A stretch of 64,000 nucleotides of DNA, taken from the IMG/VR virus record IMGVR_UViG_3300045592_000030. One strand, 5' to 3'. This stretch comes from a virus. The position numbers and the translations under genes are program-made. Of this stretch, positions 2,880 to 48,351 are shown piece after piece (the stretch's first letter is position 1; each line of letters starts with the position of its first letter). The notes beneath the pieces were generated by a model that worked only from the letters and a program-made list of their open reading frames with translations, was not told the origin of the DNA and ran no database searches.

Positions 2880-3114
2880 GATAGTCAGCAACTTACGAAC
2901 TTTCGTCGGCTTAATGTTTCACGAAAAAGCAAGCGTGAAACCACAAAAATCAGCCTTTTTAAGCCAAATATATAGGGGCTGAAAAAGCGTTTAGAAAACG
3001 TCTTTTCAGCTTCAAGACAACCATTCTAAGCTACAATATCCATCCAAAAAAAGCGATTTCTTTCTTTTTCTCCACTATTAAGCCGCAAGTTTACCACTAT
3101 TCCACTGCAAACTT

Positions 3115-5160: not shown

Positions 5161-5608
5161 ACTTGATCGTGATAAAGACATCGCTACCGCGCATAAAATC
5201 CGCGTTGAGCTTTCGCAAGAGGATGTCGAACCAATAGCGCGAGTTGTTCACTCGTCCTTTGGCTGTGTTCTCACCCACAAGGATGCAGCCATCGGTGTCA
5301 GCTTCCGTATTGCCAGGATGAATGCGCACACCCGAATAGCCGGGAACATTGTTCAACAAAGGAAGGTCGCACTTGAAACGCGGCGAATAGGTGATTGTCA
5401 CCTGATAGCGGCCAGTGGGAATGGCCGTTACATGCGGCTGCTTCATAAACATAATCTCATTGAGCGACATCTTCGAGTCAAGGCCGCGGTCGGTGTCCTC
5501 TAATGTACAGCAATAATGCTTGCCGTCGCCCAGCCGCTTGCCGTCGATGCTCAGCGTGCCGATGGTATAGCCATCGCACTTCCATTTTCTTTCAAGTAGT
5601 ATTTCCAT
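5159..5608 (-). CDS. DUF5675-like protein, putative cell-wall peptidase of the lysis cassette
   Basis: IHPGNTEADTDGCILVG His/Cys motif, positioned after the holin and wall-hydrolase genes. Function is inferred. Confidence 0.5.
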   Translation of the reverse strand: MEILLERKWKCDGYTIGTLSIDGKRLGDGKHYCCTLEDTDRGLDSKMSLNEIMFMKQPHVTAIPTGRYQVTITYSPRFKCDLPLLNNVPGYSGVRIHPGNTEADTDGCILVGENTAKGRVNNSRYWFDILLRKLNADFMRGSDVFITIK

Positions 5609-7982: not shown

Positions 7983-8273
7983 TTATTTGTTATATCTAAA
8001 GAACATCCATCCGAATAATCGGACTAAAGAATAATACACATAGGCCATGATACGCTGAAAGGCATTATGGCTGGCAGATAGACATGCACAGAGAAACAGC
8101 AAATCATAGGCATAACGATCCTCGCCATCGCCGAGTGTATCGTAGCACTCATCATGCTGGCGTGCTGCCTTGTCAAACGTCTTGCGGCATGGAAGCAAAA
8201 AGCGCAACCACACCGGGCCGACACCCAGGCCATTCACACCCTCATGCCATAAAAAACCTTTCATCGTCATCAT
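7983..8273 (-). CDS. Small protein with phospholipase A2-like motifs
   Basis: GLGVGP ... FDKAARQHDECYD resembles the parvovirus-type YxGxG / HDxxY PLA2 signature. First ATG at 8273. Confidence 0.45.
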   Translation of the reverse strand: MMTMKGFLWHEGVNGLGVGPVWLRFLLPCRKTFDKAARQHDECYDTLGDGEDRYAYDLLFLCACLSASHNAFQRIMAYVYYSLVRLFGWMFFRYNK

Positions 8274-8279
8274 CAACCA

Positions 8280-8951
8280 TTACTTAGAAGTGGAACTTGC
8301 TTTTGCAGAGCTTGCGCTGTCGTTAACCGCAGATGCTCCTTCCGTGCTTTCGTTTGTCGTCTTTCCATCATCCATGCTTGCCTTAGTCGTGAACGACGGC
8401 TTTTCAGGATAGCCCTGCTTGTAGTCGTAGGCCAACACTTTCTCGATGCCGGTAAGTGTATCGGACTTAACAGCTGCCTTGTGAGCCTCGGTGTTGTCGT
8501 AACACTGACACGCATACACCTCTATGGCGTTGAGCATCGTCAGTGCGTCGCTGACATCAAGATTGAACACGTAGCTGCCATAATGGATATAAGTCTTGTC
8601 AATGCCGCTTGCCTGTTCAGCCGCGAAACGCTGTCGCAATGCCAGCCGCGTGTCTCTGTCAAGCCATATCTCCTTGCCGTCGATAGTAAGAGAGTTCACG
8701 GCGGAGGATTTGTCGTAGGCGGAAATCTCGCTCAGTATAAGATCTTTCAGCCGTGGCATCACATCCTGCTCAGAAAGAACATTCAAGAGCTTTACACCAT
8801 CATAGACATATTCCGCCACAGTGCCGTTGGTCTGATTGCCATCAGCATCAAAGACAGGATGCTCCTCGACGGTCTCGTTAATCAATACATAAGCCTGTTT
8901 GTTGCTCAACGTAACCTGCTTCTGCGGTTCTGAAAATCTGTATTTTTCCAT
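8280..8951 (-). CDS. Hypothetical protein, possibly a DUF4376-like fibre-assembly factor
   Basis: Sits between the RT and fibre genes and has a Ser/Ala/Thr-rich tail. The family call is by eye only. Confidence 0.5.
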   Translation of the reverse strand: MEKYRFSEPQKQVTLSNKQAYVLINETVEEHPVFDADGNQTNGTVAEYVYDGVKLLNVLSEQDVMPRLKDLILSEISAYDKSSAVNSLTIDGKEIWLDRDTRLALRQRFAAEQASGIDKTYIHYGSYVFNLDVSDALTMLNAIEVYACQCYDNTEAHKAAVKSDTLTGIEKVLAYDYKQGYPEKPSFTTKASMDDGKTTNESTEGASAVNDSASSAKASSTSK

Positions 8952-8971: not shown

Positions 8972-10897
8972 TTAATATATCAAATTCTTAAACTCATCCA
9001 TCGACGCAAGACTCTGTACGGCATCCTGCTCGCTGACATGATATTCTTTGTAAAATATCTTGTTATTTTCGGAGCATTTATGCAAACGTTGATGTATCGA
9101 TGCCTTACCTTCATTCACAAGCATATAAAACTCAACGATTTCGAGGCTGCTTTCCGGTGAATGACAAAGTACAGGCTCCTGCTTACCCGGCAGAATAGCA
9201 AGATATAGCAACTTCACGTAATATGATTTTGGTACTTGCTTCAATGCTTTATCAACCGAAATATGCTTTTCCTCTGCAAGTTTCGCGGCATTCTCCTTCA
9301 TCCGCAAGTCGGACACAATTAGTTTGTATTCCACGGGGATGACAACCGTTCCATCAGGCAAATCCGCATGTTTTTTCTTGCAGCCCTTCTGAATAGTTGA
9401 AGAAACTCCTTTCTTATTGGTGAAAATCATACGATGCTCGATTAAATATTGTAGATGTTTGCTATCAGTCTTATCAAGAATACCTTTATAGCCGGCATAG
9501 TGCTGTTTGCCTTTGCGAAAAGCGCGAATGCTCCTGCGCCGTATCTCTGCACGAGGCTTCACAAAGCTGCGGAAGAAATCATATTTACAGAAGCGAAAGC
9601 CATCATCGACTTTCTTTATCTGATAATCATTCTTCACAGTTAATGAATAGCGTCCTTCGTAGAACGACATTTGAAACGACATAGCTTCGCGCACCACCTG
9701 CTTATCATAACTGCCTATCAACCGATTGTCGCCAAAGCAACAGAAAAAGACGTGATAACGCTGCAAGATAATACTATCGCATTCTGCTATCGTTATCATC
9801 GCCATCAGTTGCGAGAGGCAACCACCAATCGGAAGTTTTACGGTTTTAGAAAAAGCCGTTACAAACAGCCAGCGAAGATAAGGACAAACGATCGTTTGAA
9901 ACATCACCGAGAAAACAACCTGTATGGAGGTATTTTCATAGAAATGCTTAATATCCGTCAATCCTACGTATGCTCCTGGATGTGTATCAACCCAATGGCG
10001 TATGATATTAATCATACAATACTTCGGATCGTTGGATAACATCGAGCGTCCCTTGATGCCGCTGTACACATTCCTCACGAGCTTATTGCGGAACTTCTGC
10101 TCCACGACAATCAGAAGAATATTCTGTACGATGCGGTCAAAGACATCCGAAATATCCGCGTTTCTGTCCTTATCACCCTTACCACGCTTATGAATAATAC
10201 GTCGCTCATTCGGTAATGGCTCATAGGTCTGAGTAGCTAACAGATACCAGATATAAGCGCAAACTTCTAAACGATGAACTTCGTACCAATTCTTGACAGG
10301 CTTAGAGCAATGTGTGCGTTCCATCGTGCGGTCAAATCCAGCGAGGATTATCTCACGTGATAGAACAAATCTCCGCATATTTTTCAGTTTCCTTTTCGAG
10401 TTGGCTGTCTTGAGTTCTTTAAAAATCGGGTCGTCTTGCCGGTAGCCCGTTGCGTTGCTTTCCGCTTTCACCTCGTCGCTACCCCAAAAAGGAAGTTCTG
10501 AGCCGTAATCACACCGCCCATACGCACCAGTGGCCGCATGGTCTTCCGTTATCTTTAGGCTTGCTGCCTGCGATGCGAGGGATTCCCTGTTTATGATATT
10601 CACTACCGCTTTGACAGCCGAAGCCCCGACGTAATTGTCATTGCCATTACCTGCGTGGTTGTTACCATTCAAAGTCCGAACCGAAGGATTCGGATTCCAA
10701 GTGTTGAGGTTACAACCGACGACGGAGCCGTCATCCTCGCCTTCGCTCTTCGATAAGGTTTCATCGGTATCGTTGTTCGTAAGGAAGGGATTGCCTTGCG
10801 ATACCGCGTCTGCCTTACCGTCAACCCACAGTTGATAGTACGAGAGTATTTCTTTAGCTCTCGGCACACAATCGTAGATATGTTTTTTCTTACTCAT
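8972..10897 (-). CDS. DGR reverse transcriptase with a long N-terminal extension that contains the TR
   Basis: RT motifs: RIIHKRGKGDKDRNADISDVFDRIVQ, VYSGIKGRS, LTDIKHFYE, LPIGGCLSQ (DGR-type SQ motif), and FGDN in place of YxDD. The first ATG after the TR is at 10378. Confidence 0.8.
   Translation of the reverse strand: MSKKKHIYDCVPRAKEILSYYQLWVDGKADAVSQGNPFLTNNDTDETLSKSEGEDDGSVVGCNLNTWNPNPSVRTLNGNNHAGNGNDNYVGASAVKAVVNIINRESLASQAASLKITEDHAATGAYGRCDYGSELPFWGSDEVKAESNATGYRQDDPIFKELKTANSKRKLKNMRRFVLSREIILAGFDRTMERTHCSKPVKNWYEVHRLEVCAYIWYLLATQTYEPLPNERRIIHKRGKGDKDRNADISDVFDRIVQNILLIVVEQKFRNKLVRNVYSGIKGRSMLSNDPKYCMINIIRHWVDTHPGAYVGLTDIKHFYENTSIQVVFSVMFQTIVCPYLRWLFVTAFSKTVKLPIGGCLSQLMAMITIAECDSIILQRYHVFFCCFGDNRLIGSYDKQVVREAMSFQMSFYEGRYSLTVKNDYQIKKVDDGFRFCKYDFFRSFVKPRAEIRRRSIRAFRKGKQHYAGYKGILDKTDSKHLQYLIEHRMIFTNKKGVSSTIQKGCKKKHADLPDGTVVIPVEYKLIVSDLRMKENAAKLAEEKHISVDKALKQVPKSYYVKLLYLAILPGKQEPVLCHSPESSLEIVEFYMLVNEGKASIHQRLHKCSENNKIFYKEYHVSEQDAVQSLASMDEFKNLIY
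10610..10731 (-). repeat. DGR template repeat (TR)
   Basis: 122 nt aligning without gaps to 11096-11217 (offset 486). Contains 30 coding-strand adenines and 10 AAY codons. Confidence 0.9.
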
Positions 10898-11086
10898 TTG
10901 TCCCTTTAAAGAAACTGAACTGCTTTCGCACGTATGGCTACGCGTCGCGCCGCTAAGCCGCGGCGCAACACTGCCGCCATCTTTCAGCTATTGGCCATTT
11001 GCCTTATGCTTGTGGCCGTAATCTCGTTAAGCCACTGCTCACATTTACAATTCGTATATTATTAATGTTAATTGTTCTCTTTTTAA

Positions 11087-13057
11087 TTATGCTATCAAGA
11101 CAGCCGAAGCCCCGACGTAAAAGTCAAAGCCATAACCTGCGTGGTTGTGACCATCCAAAGTCCGAACCGAAGGATCCGGACTCCAAGTGTTGAGGAAACA
11201 ACCGACGACGGAGCCGTGTACCTGTCGTTTACCGACACCGGCGTTATTGGTCGCATACGTCCATAGATAACAATTCTCGTAGGTTCGGGCACCGCCGCCA
11301 ACGGTCTTTGCACAGAAGAGCGAAAGGGCATAGTTGCTTGTCGCAACCCAAGCCTCATTAGCCAGGACCGATGGATAAGCATAACGCTGCGACAAGCCTT
11401 TTTCGATGTCTGCCTCGCCATCTATATCAGCCTCGTAACCGAAAGACTTTCGAGCGGGAAGATCATCAATACTGGCCGTACAGCGAAATTCCATTGACAA
11501 GTTACTGCTTGCATCTTGCTTGATAACATAGAAAGCACCGTCCGTCTGTTCAAAGCAACCATACGCATACGGCAGTATCTTGCCACGGTAAACGGGCATA
11601 GAACGTTTCAAGATAGCTTTTTTGCCAGTCAGTGAAGTGCCGTCAGAAGTCAGCGTCATACCGTCGGCAAACTCCATCAGCGTATAACTGTTCACGACAG
11701 CCGTCATCACACCATCTGCCATACCTTCACAATTAGGCACATCGCGCACAATGAAGTAATGCTTTAGAGCAGTCATACCCGTACCAGTGCTCACATCAAT
11801 ACTGCCATCAGTAGAGCATTTCATCTTACCGTCATCGCCATAATAGAAAATATGGCTCTTGCTGCCTATCATAGAGATAAGTCCGGCAGCGGAAATAGCA
11901 TCGAGAACACGTTGTGGCTCCAGCATCTCGACAATGCCATAATTACTATTGCCAGCGATACCTTGTACAAGTCCGTATTTAGTGCCGCTATTGGTAATAG
12001 CCGAATCGCCCCATGTATTATAATAACGTGCATCTGTGTTCGACACGATTACCTTCCATCCGCTGTTACCGCTGACAGCATCATCATTAAAAGTTGTAGC
12101 ATTCACACTGTCAAGTGGTGTAAGTCCTGCACCGAAACAGTTCAATGCCGTTTCGTTAAGCGTGCCGATTTCTGCATAGAGCAAAGCACACCATGCCTCG
12201 TAGAACTCATAATACTCACCTAAATAAGGTGTGCGAGTCAACGGATCGGTATTCTTTGCCTGTGCACGCTGTATGCTCTGTACGCAAGACGTGAACTGCG
12301 TAGGATAGCCGCCACCGCTCTTTTTATAAGAAGCCTTAAAGATACCATTAGGCGCGTCATAGGTTCCTGCAACAGCGGTGTTGTAGATACAATGCTGCTG
12401 TGTGTTAGTATCGCCGCTGAGCTTGCCATATACCTCGCCCATCGCACAAATACCATGTTTCGGCAACAGTTTTGCCATCTTGCCGTTCCAATAAGCCGGT
12501 ACAAGGCCAATACCCATGACATTAGTCTCTTTATCATCAACTGTCTTAGTATCTTTGAGAAGATACGGCTTGGTGTCCCAACAAAGATACAGATCCCCGT
12601 CGCTTCCATCTATTGCCACCGTGTCGCCATTTGTGGCCTTAGTCAGGCAAGTACCTTCAAGCGTATGCTGCTTCGCTCCGCCTTTTACAGTGCACAAGTG
12701 CAGATGCGATCCGATTTCATGTATAAGCGATTTGCTGCCATAAGTTGTAGCCGCATCCGGAGACTGCGCACCATTCTGACGTGCGAAACCGGCAAACTGA
12801 TTTTTCTCGGAAAATGCCGCCATCAACGCGGCAAACTGCGAAACGGTATCAGATGCTTTCTGTGCGGCTGATGTCGCCGACTCCGCCGCCGTGCGAGCCT
12901 CCGCAAGATCTCCTGCTGTATTGTCGCCCACTTTTTCAGTGAGCGTTTTAATTGTTACTCTGCGCACATGCCCATCTCTCTCGGCCACCACCGCGTCGGT
13001 GTCCTGTGGGTCGGTGATAAGGGTTGCGGTACCCAAGTCTTTAATTTTGCTTTCCAT
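11087..13057 (-). CDS. DGR target: tail fibre-like receptor-binding protein
   Basis: 656 aa in the fibre module, with the VR at its extreme C-terminus (...GSVVGCFLNTWSPDPSVRTLDGHNHAGYGFDFYVGASAVLIA). Confidence 0.8.
   Translation of the reverse strand: MESKIKDLGTATLITDPQDTDAVVAERDGHVRRVTIKTLTEKVGDNTAGDLAEARTAAESATSAAQKASDTVSQFAALMAAFSEKNQFAGFARQNGAQSPDAATTYGSKSLIHEIGSHLHLCTVKGGAKQHTLEGTCLTKATNGDTVAIDGSDGDLYLCWDTKPYLLKDTKTVDDKETNVMGIGLVPAYWNGKMAKLLPKHGICAMGEVYGKLSGDTNTQQHCIYNTAVAGTYDAPNGIFKASYKKSGGGYPTQFTSCVQSIQRAQAKNTDPLTRTPYLGEYYEFYEAWCALLYAEIGTLNETALNCFGAGLTPLDSVNATTFNDDAVSGNSGWKVIVSNTDARYYNTWGDSAITNSGTKYGLVQGIAGNSNYGIVEMLEPQRVLDAISAAGLISMIGSKSHIFYYGDDGKMKCSTDGSIDVSTGTGMTALKHYFIVRDVPNCEGMADGVMTAVVNSYTLMEFADGMTLTSDGTSLTGKKAILKRSMPVYRGKILPYAYGCFEQTDGAFYVIKQDASSNLSMEFRCTASIDDLPARKSFGYEADIDGEADIEKGLSQRYAYPSVLANEAWVATSNYALSLFCAKTVGGGARTYENCYLWTYATNNAGVGKRQVHGSVVGCFLNTWSPDPSVRTLDGHNHAGYGFDFYVGASAVLIA
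11096..11217 (-). repeat. DGR variable repeat (VR)
   Basis: 14 mismatches to the TR, all at TR adenines. Covers the last 41 codons of ORF 11087..13057. GC-rich 3' end cgtcggggcttcggctgtc is identical in both copies. Confidence 0.9.
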
Positions 13058-42942: not shown

Positions 42943-43284
42943 TTATATTAATATTTTAAACATTTCACATGATTTATCATCATTTGATTTGTATGTTATA
43001 AATCCTATCCTTTTATACCAGTCTGCTATCCAACTGGTACTATCATTTACATGTAAGTACAGATATTTGCACCCTTTTTGTTTTGCAATATCCTCAACTA
43101 TGGATATAAGTTCTGTGGCCATTCCTTTTCTCCTCTCATGCTCTGAAACATTAAGATTTGACAGGAACATGTTATGGCGTTCATTCTCATAATAGGTTAA
43201 CTCACAGAAAGCATTTCCGTGTTCCTCCATAATGTATATTGATACATCATCATTATCTGAATTTATGTTAGTAATTGTTTTCAT
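42943..43284 (-). CDS. GNAT-family acetyltransferase-like protein
   Basis: RRKGMATELI (R-x-x-G-x-A motif A). 113 aa. Confidence 0.55.
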   Translation of the reverse strand: MKTITNINSDNDDVSIYIMEEHGNAFCELTYYENERHNMFLSNLNVSEHERRKGMATELISIVEDIAKQKGCKYLYLHVNDSTSWIADWYKRIGFITYKSNDDKSCEMFKILI

Positions 43285-45483: not shown

Positions 45484-46017
45484 TCATTTGTCGGTGAATA
45501 TTTGTTTCAAGTAATCCTCGAGATTGATAATACGATAGGGTAGGGCATTCTTCTTACAGTCGTTGACAAAGGTAACATCCACATCATCCAGTGTCAACGG
45601 TGTGCGTTCCTTGTCTCTGTCTTTGCGTGCGGCATCTATCTTCGTGCGGTCGGGTCGGCGGATATATATCACTCGGATGTTGCACTCGTGCGAGAAATGC
45701 TCACGAAGATAGGACAAACCTTTTTCGTCGATGACATACACGTTGATGCGTGTTGTGGAAAGGTCTTTGAAGTTGGCCCAATATTCATATCCGCCATACT
45801 GCGTATAGGCGAACATATCCATCTTGTCATAGCCGATGTTCTTTGTCGGGTCGTGGAAGATATGCTCGCGGCGATTTTGCTCTCCCGGTCGCATCGGGCG
45901 TGTGGTGTGGCTGACCAGCACCTTGAAGCCTACGTCGGTCTTTTCCAACAACCGTGCGATGGTGTCCTTGCCGCTACCACTGGCACCAACGATACATAAT
46001 ACTTTTCTGCGTGCCAT
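45484..46017 (-). CDS. Guanylate-kinase-like (d)NMP kinase
   Basis: P-loop GASGSGKDT and SHTTRPMRPGE motif. Confidence 0.7.
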   Translation of the reverse strand: MARRKVLCIVGASGSGKDTIARLLEKTDVGFKVLVSHTTRPMRPGEQNRREHIFHDPTKNIGYDKMDMFAYTQYGGYEYWANFKDLSTTRINVYVIDEKGLSYLREHFSHECNIRVIYIRRPDRTKIDAARKDRDKERTPLTLDDVDVTFVNDCKKNALPYRIINLEDYLKQIFTDK

Positions 46018-47970: not shown

Positions 47971-48351
47971 TTATCGCTCGTCGCCATTTCCGTCGATAAC
48001 TCCACGTTGCTGTCGGCTGGCGAGCTTTTCAAGGTTCTCACGTGCCACGTCATCAAGTTTCCAGCCCATAACCGAACACAAGCCTGACAACTGCCAAAGC
48101 ACATCACCGGCCTCTTTGCGGATTAAGGCGATCTGCTCGTCAGTGAGATAATACGATTGTGATAACGGATGCTGGCCCTGCTCGGTGAGCGGCTGTGTTA
48201 CCACGTGAAGATGTTCTTTGCGCACGGCTTTAGCGAACTTACCCAACAGTTCGCCACATTCAGCCGCAAGATTGAAGCCCATATAGACAATGTTGTTGCA
48301 TGTAGGCAAACAGGTCATCATGGCTTTCTTTTGATACTCGTTGATTTCCAT
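47971..48351 (-). CDS. mazG: MazG-like nucleoside triphosphate pyrophosphohydrolase
   Basis: AAECGELLGKFAK ... EAGDVLWQL pattern typical of MazG. Confidence 0.75.
   Translation of the reverse strand: MEINEYQKKAMMTCLPTCNNIVYMGFNLAAECGELLGKFAKAVRKEHLHVVTQPLTEQGQHPLSQSYYLTDEQIALIRKEAGDVLWQLSGLCSVMGWKLDDVARENLEKLASRQQRGVIDGNGDER

Follow-up and report, generated by a model that had tools for sequence, protein, structure and literature searches.

How a diversity-generating retroelement (DGR) might keep its template inside the coding sequence of its own reverse transcriptase (RT), and why the frame across that template should stay open, are the questions raised by a locus in the viral DNA stretch IMGVR_UViG_3300045592_000030, 64,000 nucleotides (nt) long and referred to here as the window. 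A sequence-only reading had noticed an open reading frame (ORF) of 641 codons in which 56 leader codons and the template repeat (TR), lying in frame, are followed by ~77 more sense codons and the RT, and this description holds, as do its coordinates and the position of the first internal ATG (M174, at 10378). The TR and the variable repeat (VR) at the 3' end of the neighbouring target gene form a 119 nt direct repeat of 91% identity, and all 11 mismatches between the two fall on adenines of the TR, which contains 27 of them. Both copies close with the same ~20 nt (11099–11118 in the VR, ACGTCGGGGCTTCGGCTGTC) and diverge beyond, a GC-rich end that appears similar to the paired initiation of mutagenic homing sites (IMH/IMH*) of DGRs; in the target gene the stop codon follows after 9 nt. 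Translated in the coding frame of the VR, the TR reads DGSVVGCNLNTWNPNPSVRTLNGNNHAGNGNDNYVGASAVK and is preceded by 55–56 leader codons. The 355 nt between the target's stop codon (11087) and the TR were said to hold no ORF of the size of the accessory gene avd, and indeed they contain ORFs of only 43, 64 and 66 amino acids (aa), the two on the plus strand having no real Pfam match. The explanation that we consider probable is that this is an active, Avd-less phage DGR whose cis-acting RNA lies within the RT coding sequence, with a start codon upstream of that RNA and with complementary DNA (cDNA) that is self-primed.

The first support for this comes from the relatives of the RT. A search of 5.8 billion proteins found 317 homologues; among the 120 listed, nearly all are 560–670 aa long, with query coverage of at least 86% and identity down to 41%. 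DNA was compared for 36 loci: 24 IMG/VR contigs, seven close relatives, two metagenome-assembled genomes (MAGs), two further contigs and the window itself. The MAG loci, from Prevotella sp. UBA1104 and a Bacteroidaceae bacterium, were the only two that a scan of genome contigs returned, so that the host is assigned only to the level of the order, Bacteroidales. In 35 of these 36 loci of Bacteroidales phages and MAGs the TR sits within a frame that is continuous with the RT, the sole exception being one contig (L035) that is weighed below; stops or frameshifts upstream of the RT are thus confined to that contig. Wherever a contig includes the upstream gene, the order is target and then RT, and the VR lies 400–525 nt upstream with mismatches almost all at TR adenines; the same layout and adenine-biased mismatches are found in the 24 IMG/VR loci and in those close relatives that contain a VR.

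The stop codons are particularly informative. Among 31 loci, the RT frame has no stop in 1,952 leader codons and none in the 2,276 codons of the spacer between the TR and the RT domain, whereas these segments, when read in the two alternative frames, contain 458 stops, of which 196 are in the leader (84 and 112 by frame) and 262 in the spacer (156 and 106). These out-of-frame stops occupy 85 distinct alignment sites (39 of them in the leader), and as 54 of the 85 are private to a single clade, stops evidently appear readily wherever they can be tolerated. Clades differ by insertions and deletions that leave the RT frame intact, and the leader, A-rich at its beginning, is of conserved length, mostly 55–70 codons. 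The earlier suspicion that so long a stop-free frame would not be due to chance is therefore well founded: judged from these alignments, the in-frame TR is far beyond chance, selection keeps the frame open, and the layout is conserved as a trait of one clade of DGRs from Bacteroidales phages, which numbers ~30 representatives at 50% identity (E < 1e-30). Outgroup DGR RTs of 300–450 aa align from the RT domain on, at their residues 2–40, from which it follows that the N-terminal extension is specific to the clade. A megablast search with the locus found nothing among 50,697 phage records, and tblastn yielded only RTs of ~25% identity. Separately, we note a sister clade (L037, 360–1829, and L038, 516–1730) that carries FCDD as its motif C, shares the KR(K/L)LRNIKAF opening and likewise keeps its TR in frame with the RT, in L037 with a start codon only ~10 codons ahead of the TR; the in-frame layout may thus predate the clade of the window, in which motif C is FGDN, and be more widespread than it.

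It could be argued that the functional RT begins past the TR, at M174 or at a non-canonical codon, and that the 641-aa protein is unmade or irrelevant, the upstream frame being open since the TR mirrors a coding VR while its flanks are conserved as RNA. Such internal initiation would sit well with the predicted disorder of the N-terminal 157 aa, with a constraint on this region that is mostly at the nucleotide level, with the start of the RT after the TR in L035, and with distant RTs such as P0173 and P0193, in which an in-frame TR peptide precedes an obvious canonical start and which have the look of gene-caller over-extension. We nevertheless regard it as improbable, and not only because the RT frame lacks stops that elsewhere appear at 85 mostly clade-private sites and is preserved through between-clade insertions and deletions. 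From the TR to the conserved KRKLK motif at the opening of the RT domain, no candidate start codon (ATG, GTG or TTG) is shared across the family, and at least one locus (L027) lacks any between the TR end and a short S-x-L-P-F-W motif in the spacer. M174, which is Leu in most homologues, is ruled out as a conserved start. Finally, both the S-x-LPFW motif and the KRKLK region lie upstream of M174 and are under selection at the amino-acid level. In the case of S-x-LPFW, the Ser is encoded across the family through both TCN and AGT, the Leu through five codons and the Pro through four, with Phe and Trp conserved, and on this pattern of codon usage the motif is clearly selected as protein; the RT ORF of L035 retains ...LLPFY.... 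Parsimony counts of changes at the three codon positions of the spacer (149/156/212) have a third-position excess (p = 0.001). From these comparisons we conclude that the spacer must be translated. Coding conservation of the upstream frame, as considered in the sequence-only reading, is thus supported in the spacer, by the third-position excess and the S-x-LPFW motif, and is weak in the leader, as discussed below.

What the extension might do as a protein is another matter. It had been suggested that the RT carries a decoy copy of its own target tip, and that one or other of its extensions might prove to be an Avd-like four-helix bundle or an HRDC domain. In an AlphaFold2 model of the RT protein, built on 67 homologues, the N-terminal 157 aa are predicted to be disordered, with a predicted local distance difference test score (pLDDT) below 50 (23–44 over residues 1–150) and with no helical bundle, and the extension has no match in Pfam, even at E = 10. 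It is acidic, with an isoelectric point (pI) of 4.8 in the window and a family median of ~5, against ~9.9 for the RT. The TR peptide as a folded decoy was rejected because of its predicted disorder, which it shares with the rest of the weakly constrained N-terminal region, and its absence from the RT ORF of L035, in which the TR is out of frame; it is probably a passenger and not a decoy. The leader as a remnant of avd was likewise rejected, as it has no profile similarity and is acidic and disordered.

A broader form of the idea is that the N-terminal extension is a functional module, either an acidic tail that regulates or chaperones the basic RT in Avd's stead or a TR-peptide decoy or assembly signal. 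Its open frame is conserved, its ratio of nonsynonymous to synonymous substitution rates (dN/dS) is below 1 in close pairs (0.12–0.56 save for one near-identical pair, compared with 0.03–0.05 for the RT), S-x-LPFW is conserved, and the charge contrast with the RT is family-wide, all of which would fit. This nonetheless seems unlikely to us: there is no predicted fold to go with the lack of a Pfam match, the extension is acidic whereas Avd proteins are basic (mean pI 9.5; PMC5758913), the leader cannot be aligned between clades as protein, and the RT ORF of L035 does without both leader and TR peptide. Moreover, peptide conservation in the extension mostly coincides with RNA helices and loops, as for the conserved peptide 'ATG(G)', which is simply the translation of the conserved top and loop (GCCACTGGTG) of one of the stem-loops described next.

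All of the cis-acting RNA of the element appears, from the comparative analysis, to lie in the 5' part of the RT coding sequence, within roughly its first 380–520 nt. RNAalifold was run on 22 sequences, and 24 base pairs were evaluated, in a long-range duplex that encloses the TR and in two stem-loops, hp1 and hp2 (Table 1). Standard pairing is found in 98.1% of the alignment cells for these 24 pairs, compared with 28–42% when the partners are slid by 1–3 columns, and compensatory double changes are found in 15 of the 24 pairs (84 cells, against 3–7 in the slid controls). For the duplex, 96.4% of cells are paired and 7 of 10 pairs have compensatory changes; for hp1, which has 4 bp, the figures are 98.9% and 3 of 4 pairs; and for hp2, 99.5% and 5 of 10. 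After the upstream strand come the TR and a short linker, then the downstream strand with a small stem-loop behind it, and finally adenosines, a single strand and a long stem-loop. The linker, from the TR end to the 3' strand of the duplex, is 32 nt long (10581–10612), and RNAalifold finds no conserved helix in it, although a very small element could lie there. A leader hairpin (10841–10863) and a compensatory change in it, in L030, were read by eye from the alignment. A search of Rfam with 10300–11300 returned no family.

Substitution rates point the same way. The synonymous rate (dS) in the leader is 0.06–0.5, as opposed to 0.5 to >3 in the RT domain, and between the window and L027 it is 0.41 in the leader, 0.34 in the TR and 0.42 in the spacer compared with >3 in the RT domain; third-position change per site in leader, TR and spacer is about half of that in the RT domain. 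We considered whether recombination alone could have lowered dS upstream and rejected it, as the pattern is present in 10 of 10 pairs and in the parsimony counts, and as RNA structure explains the covariation. A DGR template can thus apparently sit in translated sequence under a dual constraint on RNA and protein.

Table 1. Features of the DGR locus in the window, with the basis on which each was assigned; RNA elements, domains and the leader/TR/spacer translation are predictions.
Feature	Position	Strand	Basis
DGR target gene, 656 aa, VR at 3' end	11087..13057	(-)	ORF list
VR, 3' end of target gene	11099..11217	(-)	repeat comparison
Conserved motif and small hairpin (GTGGCTTAACGA...GGCCAC), VR-RT gap	11012..11035	(-)	gap sequences of all clades
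GC-rich hairpin, core 10947-10966 GCGCCGC-GGCTTA-GCGGCGC	10934..10980	(-)	per-locus RNAfold
RT ORF, 641 codons: leader, TR, spacer, RT domain, C-terminal domain	8972..10897	(-)	ORF list and translation
Predicted leader/TR/spacer translation, including peptide SEGEDDGSVVGCNLNTWNPNPSVR	10897-10426		
Leader, codons 1-55, with hairpins, e.g. 10841-10863 CGAGAG...CTCTCG	10733..10897	(-)	synonymous constraint
TR-enclosing long-range duplex, 5' strand GCGAAGGCGAGG	10735..10746	(-)	RNAalifold
TR, codons 56-95 of RT ORF, in frame	10613..10731	(-)	repeat comparison
TR-enclosing duplex, 3' strand CCTCGCATCGC	10570..10580	(-)	RNAalifold
Stem-loop hp1, AGGC-AGCAA-GCCT, directly after duplex	10557..10569	(-)	RNAalifold
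A-rich single strand AAAGATAACGGAAGA	10542..10556	(-)	sequence
Stem-loop hp2, 10 bp, CCATGCGGCC-ACT-GGTGCGTATGG	10518..10541	(-)	RNAalifold
S-x-L-P-F-W motif, aa 133-138, in spacer	10484..10501	(-)	codon usage across family
DGR-type RT domain, aa 158-489	9431..10426	(-)	AlphaFold2, pLDDT ~90 from residue 158 on
Motif A TD315I; motif B IGGCLSQ, aa 357-363; motif C FGDN, aa 388-391	9725-9736 (motif C)	(-)	
C-terminal alpha/beta domain, family-specific, aa 490-641	8975..9430	(-)	AlphaFold2, pLDDT 88, core >95

The identity of the enzyme is reasonably clear. Pfam gives only a weak RVT_1 match (aa 242–412), but the closest fold in the PDB to the AlphaFold2 model is that of bRT, the RT of the Bordetella phage DGR (8ub7_A), with a template modelling (TM) score of 0.85 on the target and a root-mean-square deviation of 2.7 Å, and bRT is also the top match among PDB sequences in a profile search. 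The DGR hallmark IGxxxSQ is present as IGGCLSQ and is invariant in the family. Motif C departs from the canonical YxDD: in a hidden Markov model (HMM) alignment FGDN is set on the YMDD of bRT, and it is invariant across 67 sequences, with FTDN and FADN found in related RTs. The same FGDN forms the catalytic core of an RT-Cas1 fusion that is active as an RT in vitro and that was inactivated by mutation to FGAA (PMC11662929), so that FGDN is no argument against activity; it is unusual for a DGR, yet it has a precedent in an active RT. More direct is the comparison with L025, which is 98.7% identical to the window over 9 kb and has the same TR, while the VRs of the two differ solely at TR-adenine positions. 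Retrohoming must therefore have been recent in this lineage, and the element is evidently an active DGR in nature, as far as sequences can tell. An invariant FGDN in the RT of an evidently active DGR bears on the need for the second catalytic Asp.

How such a DGR would function without Avd brings us to the C-terminal region, which had been described as an extension of about 170 aa with no recognisable motif. This assessment stands, in that the extension, ~150–170 aa long, has no Pfam match and a profile search against PDB sequences gave noise only, and it can be extended, as the model indicates that this is a real, conserved and folded domain of ~150 aa. A Foldseek search of the PDB with it gave no significant fold match (best E = 0.19), and in BFVD there was one significant match, a 602-aa protein annotated as an RT that belongs to the same family; its fold may be new, or too far diverged for its kinship to be seen. 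The Avd family itself, basic four-helix-bundle proteins of ~110–130 aa whose gene characterises Architecture B, was not found by Pfam in the N-terminal extension, in the C-terminal domain, in the two plus-strand gap ORFs or in ~20 small ORFs of the window, a scan that covered these candidates and not every ORF of the 64 kb. An HRDC domain, which would mark Architecture C, was equally without a Pfam match in the RT, its extensions and the neighbouring genes, and the AlphaFold2 model has no helical bundle in either extension. The expectation of a bundle or an HRDC domain was thus not borne out at either end, the N-terminal extension being acidic and disordered and the C-terminal domain alpha/beta with no structural match.

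It is tempting to speculate that the C-terminal domain is nevertheless the functional replacement for Avd, with a role in holding RNA or cDNA, in oligomerisation or in homing, and this would be compatible with the explanation we favour. The domain is conserved in the family and confidently folded and is absent from the Avd-dependent bRT (328 aa), the RNA of the window seems to have no room for an Avd-binding stem-loop, and some outgroup RTs of 430–475 aa, such as P0139 and P0157, align into the region. We hold this only tentatively and would not bet on it, since the domain has no likeness in fold or sequence to Avd, to HRDC or to solved nucleic-acid-binding domains, and its median pI of ~6.3 is atypical for an RNA binder. 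Furthermore, the Avd-less RT of Bacteroides phage Versailles (395 aa, YMDD) has no such domain, from which it is apparent that the Avd-less state does not require one.

Putting these pieces together, the Avd-less DGR that we think probable would work as follows. Translation would begin at the conserved, A-rich ATG 10897, upstream of the RNA element, and would read through leader, TR and spacer to give a protein whose first 157 aa are an acidic and disordered extension, followed by an FGDN RT domain and the family-specific C-terminal domain. The frame would be kept open by the combination of a start codon upstream of the structured RNA and a need for S-x-LPFW in the protein, with the TR-encoded peptide most likely a passenger and the N-terminal extension largely one, apart from this motif. 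The RT would then take the 5' part of its own mRNA, presumably in cis, or an identical transcript, as the template for adenine-mutagenic cDNA; this cDNA would be self-primed from the spacer, the presumed primer region, independently of Avd, and would replace the VR at the 3' end of the upstream target gene.

Several observations weigh against this account. The start codon and the long protein are deduced from evolution only. Amino-acid constraint in the leader is weak, with codon-position counts of 146/163/184 (p = 0.11), which leaves the open frame as the sole evidence that the leader is translated. In L035 (1–330), the only family member found with the TR out of the RT frame, a stop lies three codons past the TR and the RT ORF begins at an ATG 47 nt after it; the fusion would therefore not be obligatory, unless this lone 2.2-kb metagenomic contig contains an assembly error or the element is decaying, either of which is possible. 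Finally, FGDN is without the second catalytic Asp of YxDD, and what speaks for activity is VR variation and the RT-Cas1 precedent only.

The gap between the VR and the RT ORF contributes elements of a different kind. In addition to a conserved motif with a small hairpin, it contains a GC-rich hairpin whose loop, GGCTTAG, is conserved and whose stems vary by clade yet stay complementary (GGAGCGGC/GCCGCTCC, GGGGCGGC/GCCGCCCC, GTAGCGGC/GCCGCTAC and ATGCCGC/GCGGCAT), the support for it consisting of folds of individual sequences and reading by eye only. As no U tract follows them, these elements are not terminator-like; they might be recognition elements of the homing target or the 5' part of the DGR RNA. 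In L022 there are two VRs (2999–3110 and 5494–5605) in two target genes but a single TR, and each VR is followed by a copy of a repeated segment of ~150 nt, hairpin motifs included; this points to post-VR elements that move together with the target and not with the TR.

The wider genome is sparsely annotated. The 656-aa target protein has no match in Pfam or PHROG, and its gene sits in a block of uncharacterised genes that closes with an endolysin-like gene and a holin. Most structural genes of the phage have no Pfam or PHROG match, and a PHROG search of the neighbouring genes was almost empty. Elsewhere in the window, on the minus strand, are genes for a small GNAT acetyltransferase (42943–43284), a guanylate-kinase-like P-loop protein (45484–46017) and a MazG-like pyrophosphohydrolase (47971–48351). 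Two genes downstream of the RT, past an ORF at 8280–8951, a 97-aa ORF (7983–8276, minus strand) has weak, sub-threshold matches to phospholipase A2-like families and DUF1353, and its position is kept in relatives as ORFs of 92–95 aa.

It remains to place this DGR among those already described. Like the BPP-1 element of Bordetella phage, it shows adenine-specific transfer from TR to VR in the 3' end of a gene in a phage structural block, and the two share the RT fold and IGxxxSQ. The likeness may extend to the RNA, as the element order in the window is that of the 'cPRT Stop' duplex with its stem-loop and A-minor adenosines, the 'Thumb Ring' and the bRT-binding stem-loop (bioRxiv 10.1101/2023.10.23.563531), so that by analogy the RNA elements map one-to-one onto the Bordetella phage ribonucleoprotein save for the Avd-binding stem-loop. 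The A-rich single strand would then correspond to the A-minor adenosines and 'Thumb Ring', by element order only. In BPP-1, too, the upstream strand of the duplex is part of a coding sequence, namely the 3' end of avd. The differences are equally clear. No Avd gene was found in the window, and its RNA is contained entirely in the RT ORF, where it is read in frame; FGDN takes the place of YMDD in motif C; and the RT carries the extra N-terminal 157 aa and the ~150-aa C-terminal domain that the 328-aa bRT does not. In addition, the duplex strand Sp59-70 of the Bordetella phage RNA is ~58 nt after the TR, and that stretch holds the 31-nt Avd-binding stem-loop Sp3-33 (bioRxiv 10.1101/2023.10.23.563531), whereas the 32-nt linker of the window appears to have no room for one. 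Because of this shorter linker, the RNA of the window resembles an Avd-independent form of the Bordetella phage machinery, with an equivalence of function that we infer.

A second point of reference is Architecture A, the Avd-less arrangement that accounts for 29% of DGRs, with lineage 3 lacking avd (Wu et al., 2018, PMC5758913), and in particular Architecture A1 and lineage 3, as in crAssphage LMMB and Bacteroides phage Versailles. Cassettes of target, TR and RT without avd are also known from crAss-like phages (PMC7290462). The window has the same order of target, TR and RT with no accessory gene, a phage with a Bacteroidales host, and a VR that encodes the C-terminal end of a structural-block protein, which in crAssphage LMMB is a tail-collar fibre. 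However, its RT is only ~25% identical to those of the crAss-like phages and Versailles, and the RT ORF of Versailles excludes the TR, its frame being open for no more than 27 nt ahead of the start codon, and that RT, as noted above, has YMDD and no C-terminal domain. Extensions at the C-terminus are found in ~20% of DGR RTs (Wu et al., 2018, PMC5758913).

Overlap between TR and RT is not without precedent either. Schillinger et al., 2012, set apart as 'group 3' the cassettes with a TR that shares sequence with the 5' part of the RT ORF as annotated; they considered spatial arrangement irrelevant, the TR and RT RNAs being probably transcribed separately (PMC3521204). That group is defined by annotation and carries no claim of translation or conservation, in contrast to the overlap in the window, which is in frame, conserved in a clade and, on the alignments, under selection. 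A survey from 2024 removed cases of TR/RT overlap on the ground that they do not fit what defines a DGR (PMC11661182); if such overlap is treated as an artefact, surveys will miss elements of this kind. The sequence-only reading knew of no description of such a layout, and this proves to be only partly so: Avd-less DGRs, C-terminal RT extensions and TR/RT overlap have been published (PMC5758913, PMC3521204), whereas among open-access papers and bioRxiv we found none on a conserved, selected TR within the RT ORF and in its frame, and it is this embedding that is new, within the papers searched.

The mechanism of DGRs is known almost wholly from one Avd-dependent system, though ~29% of DGRs lack an accessory gene, and the clade described here offers a compact, apparently active model for the Avd-less kind. 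A self-contained diversifier in a single ORF would also be attractive for DGR-based tools for targeted mutagenesis.

The last comparison is with a retroelement of a different class, and is meant as an analogy only. The group II intron protein LtrA binds intron domain IVa, a structured RNA that reaches into the 5' end of the LtrA coding sequence, and this binding allows both a cis preference and autoregulation of translation. A further possibility for the window is a DGR of one gene, whose ORF alone provides the enzyme together with the full template and priming RNA and which needs no accessory protein; its RT would act in cis and repress its own translation, the N-terminal extension and/or the C-terminal domain would replace Avd, and FGDN would be a true catalytic variant capable of adenine mutagenesis. 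Taken as a whole, this is a speculative picture that we think more apt to be wrong than right. Were it true, translation and reverse transcription would compete for the same 5' RNA.

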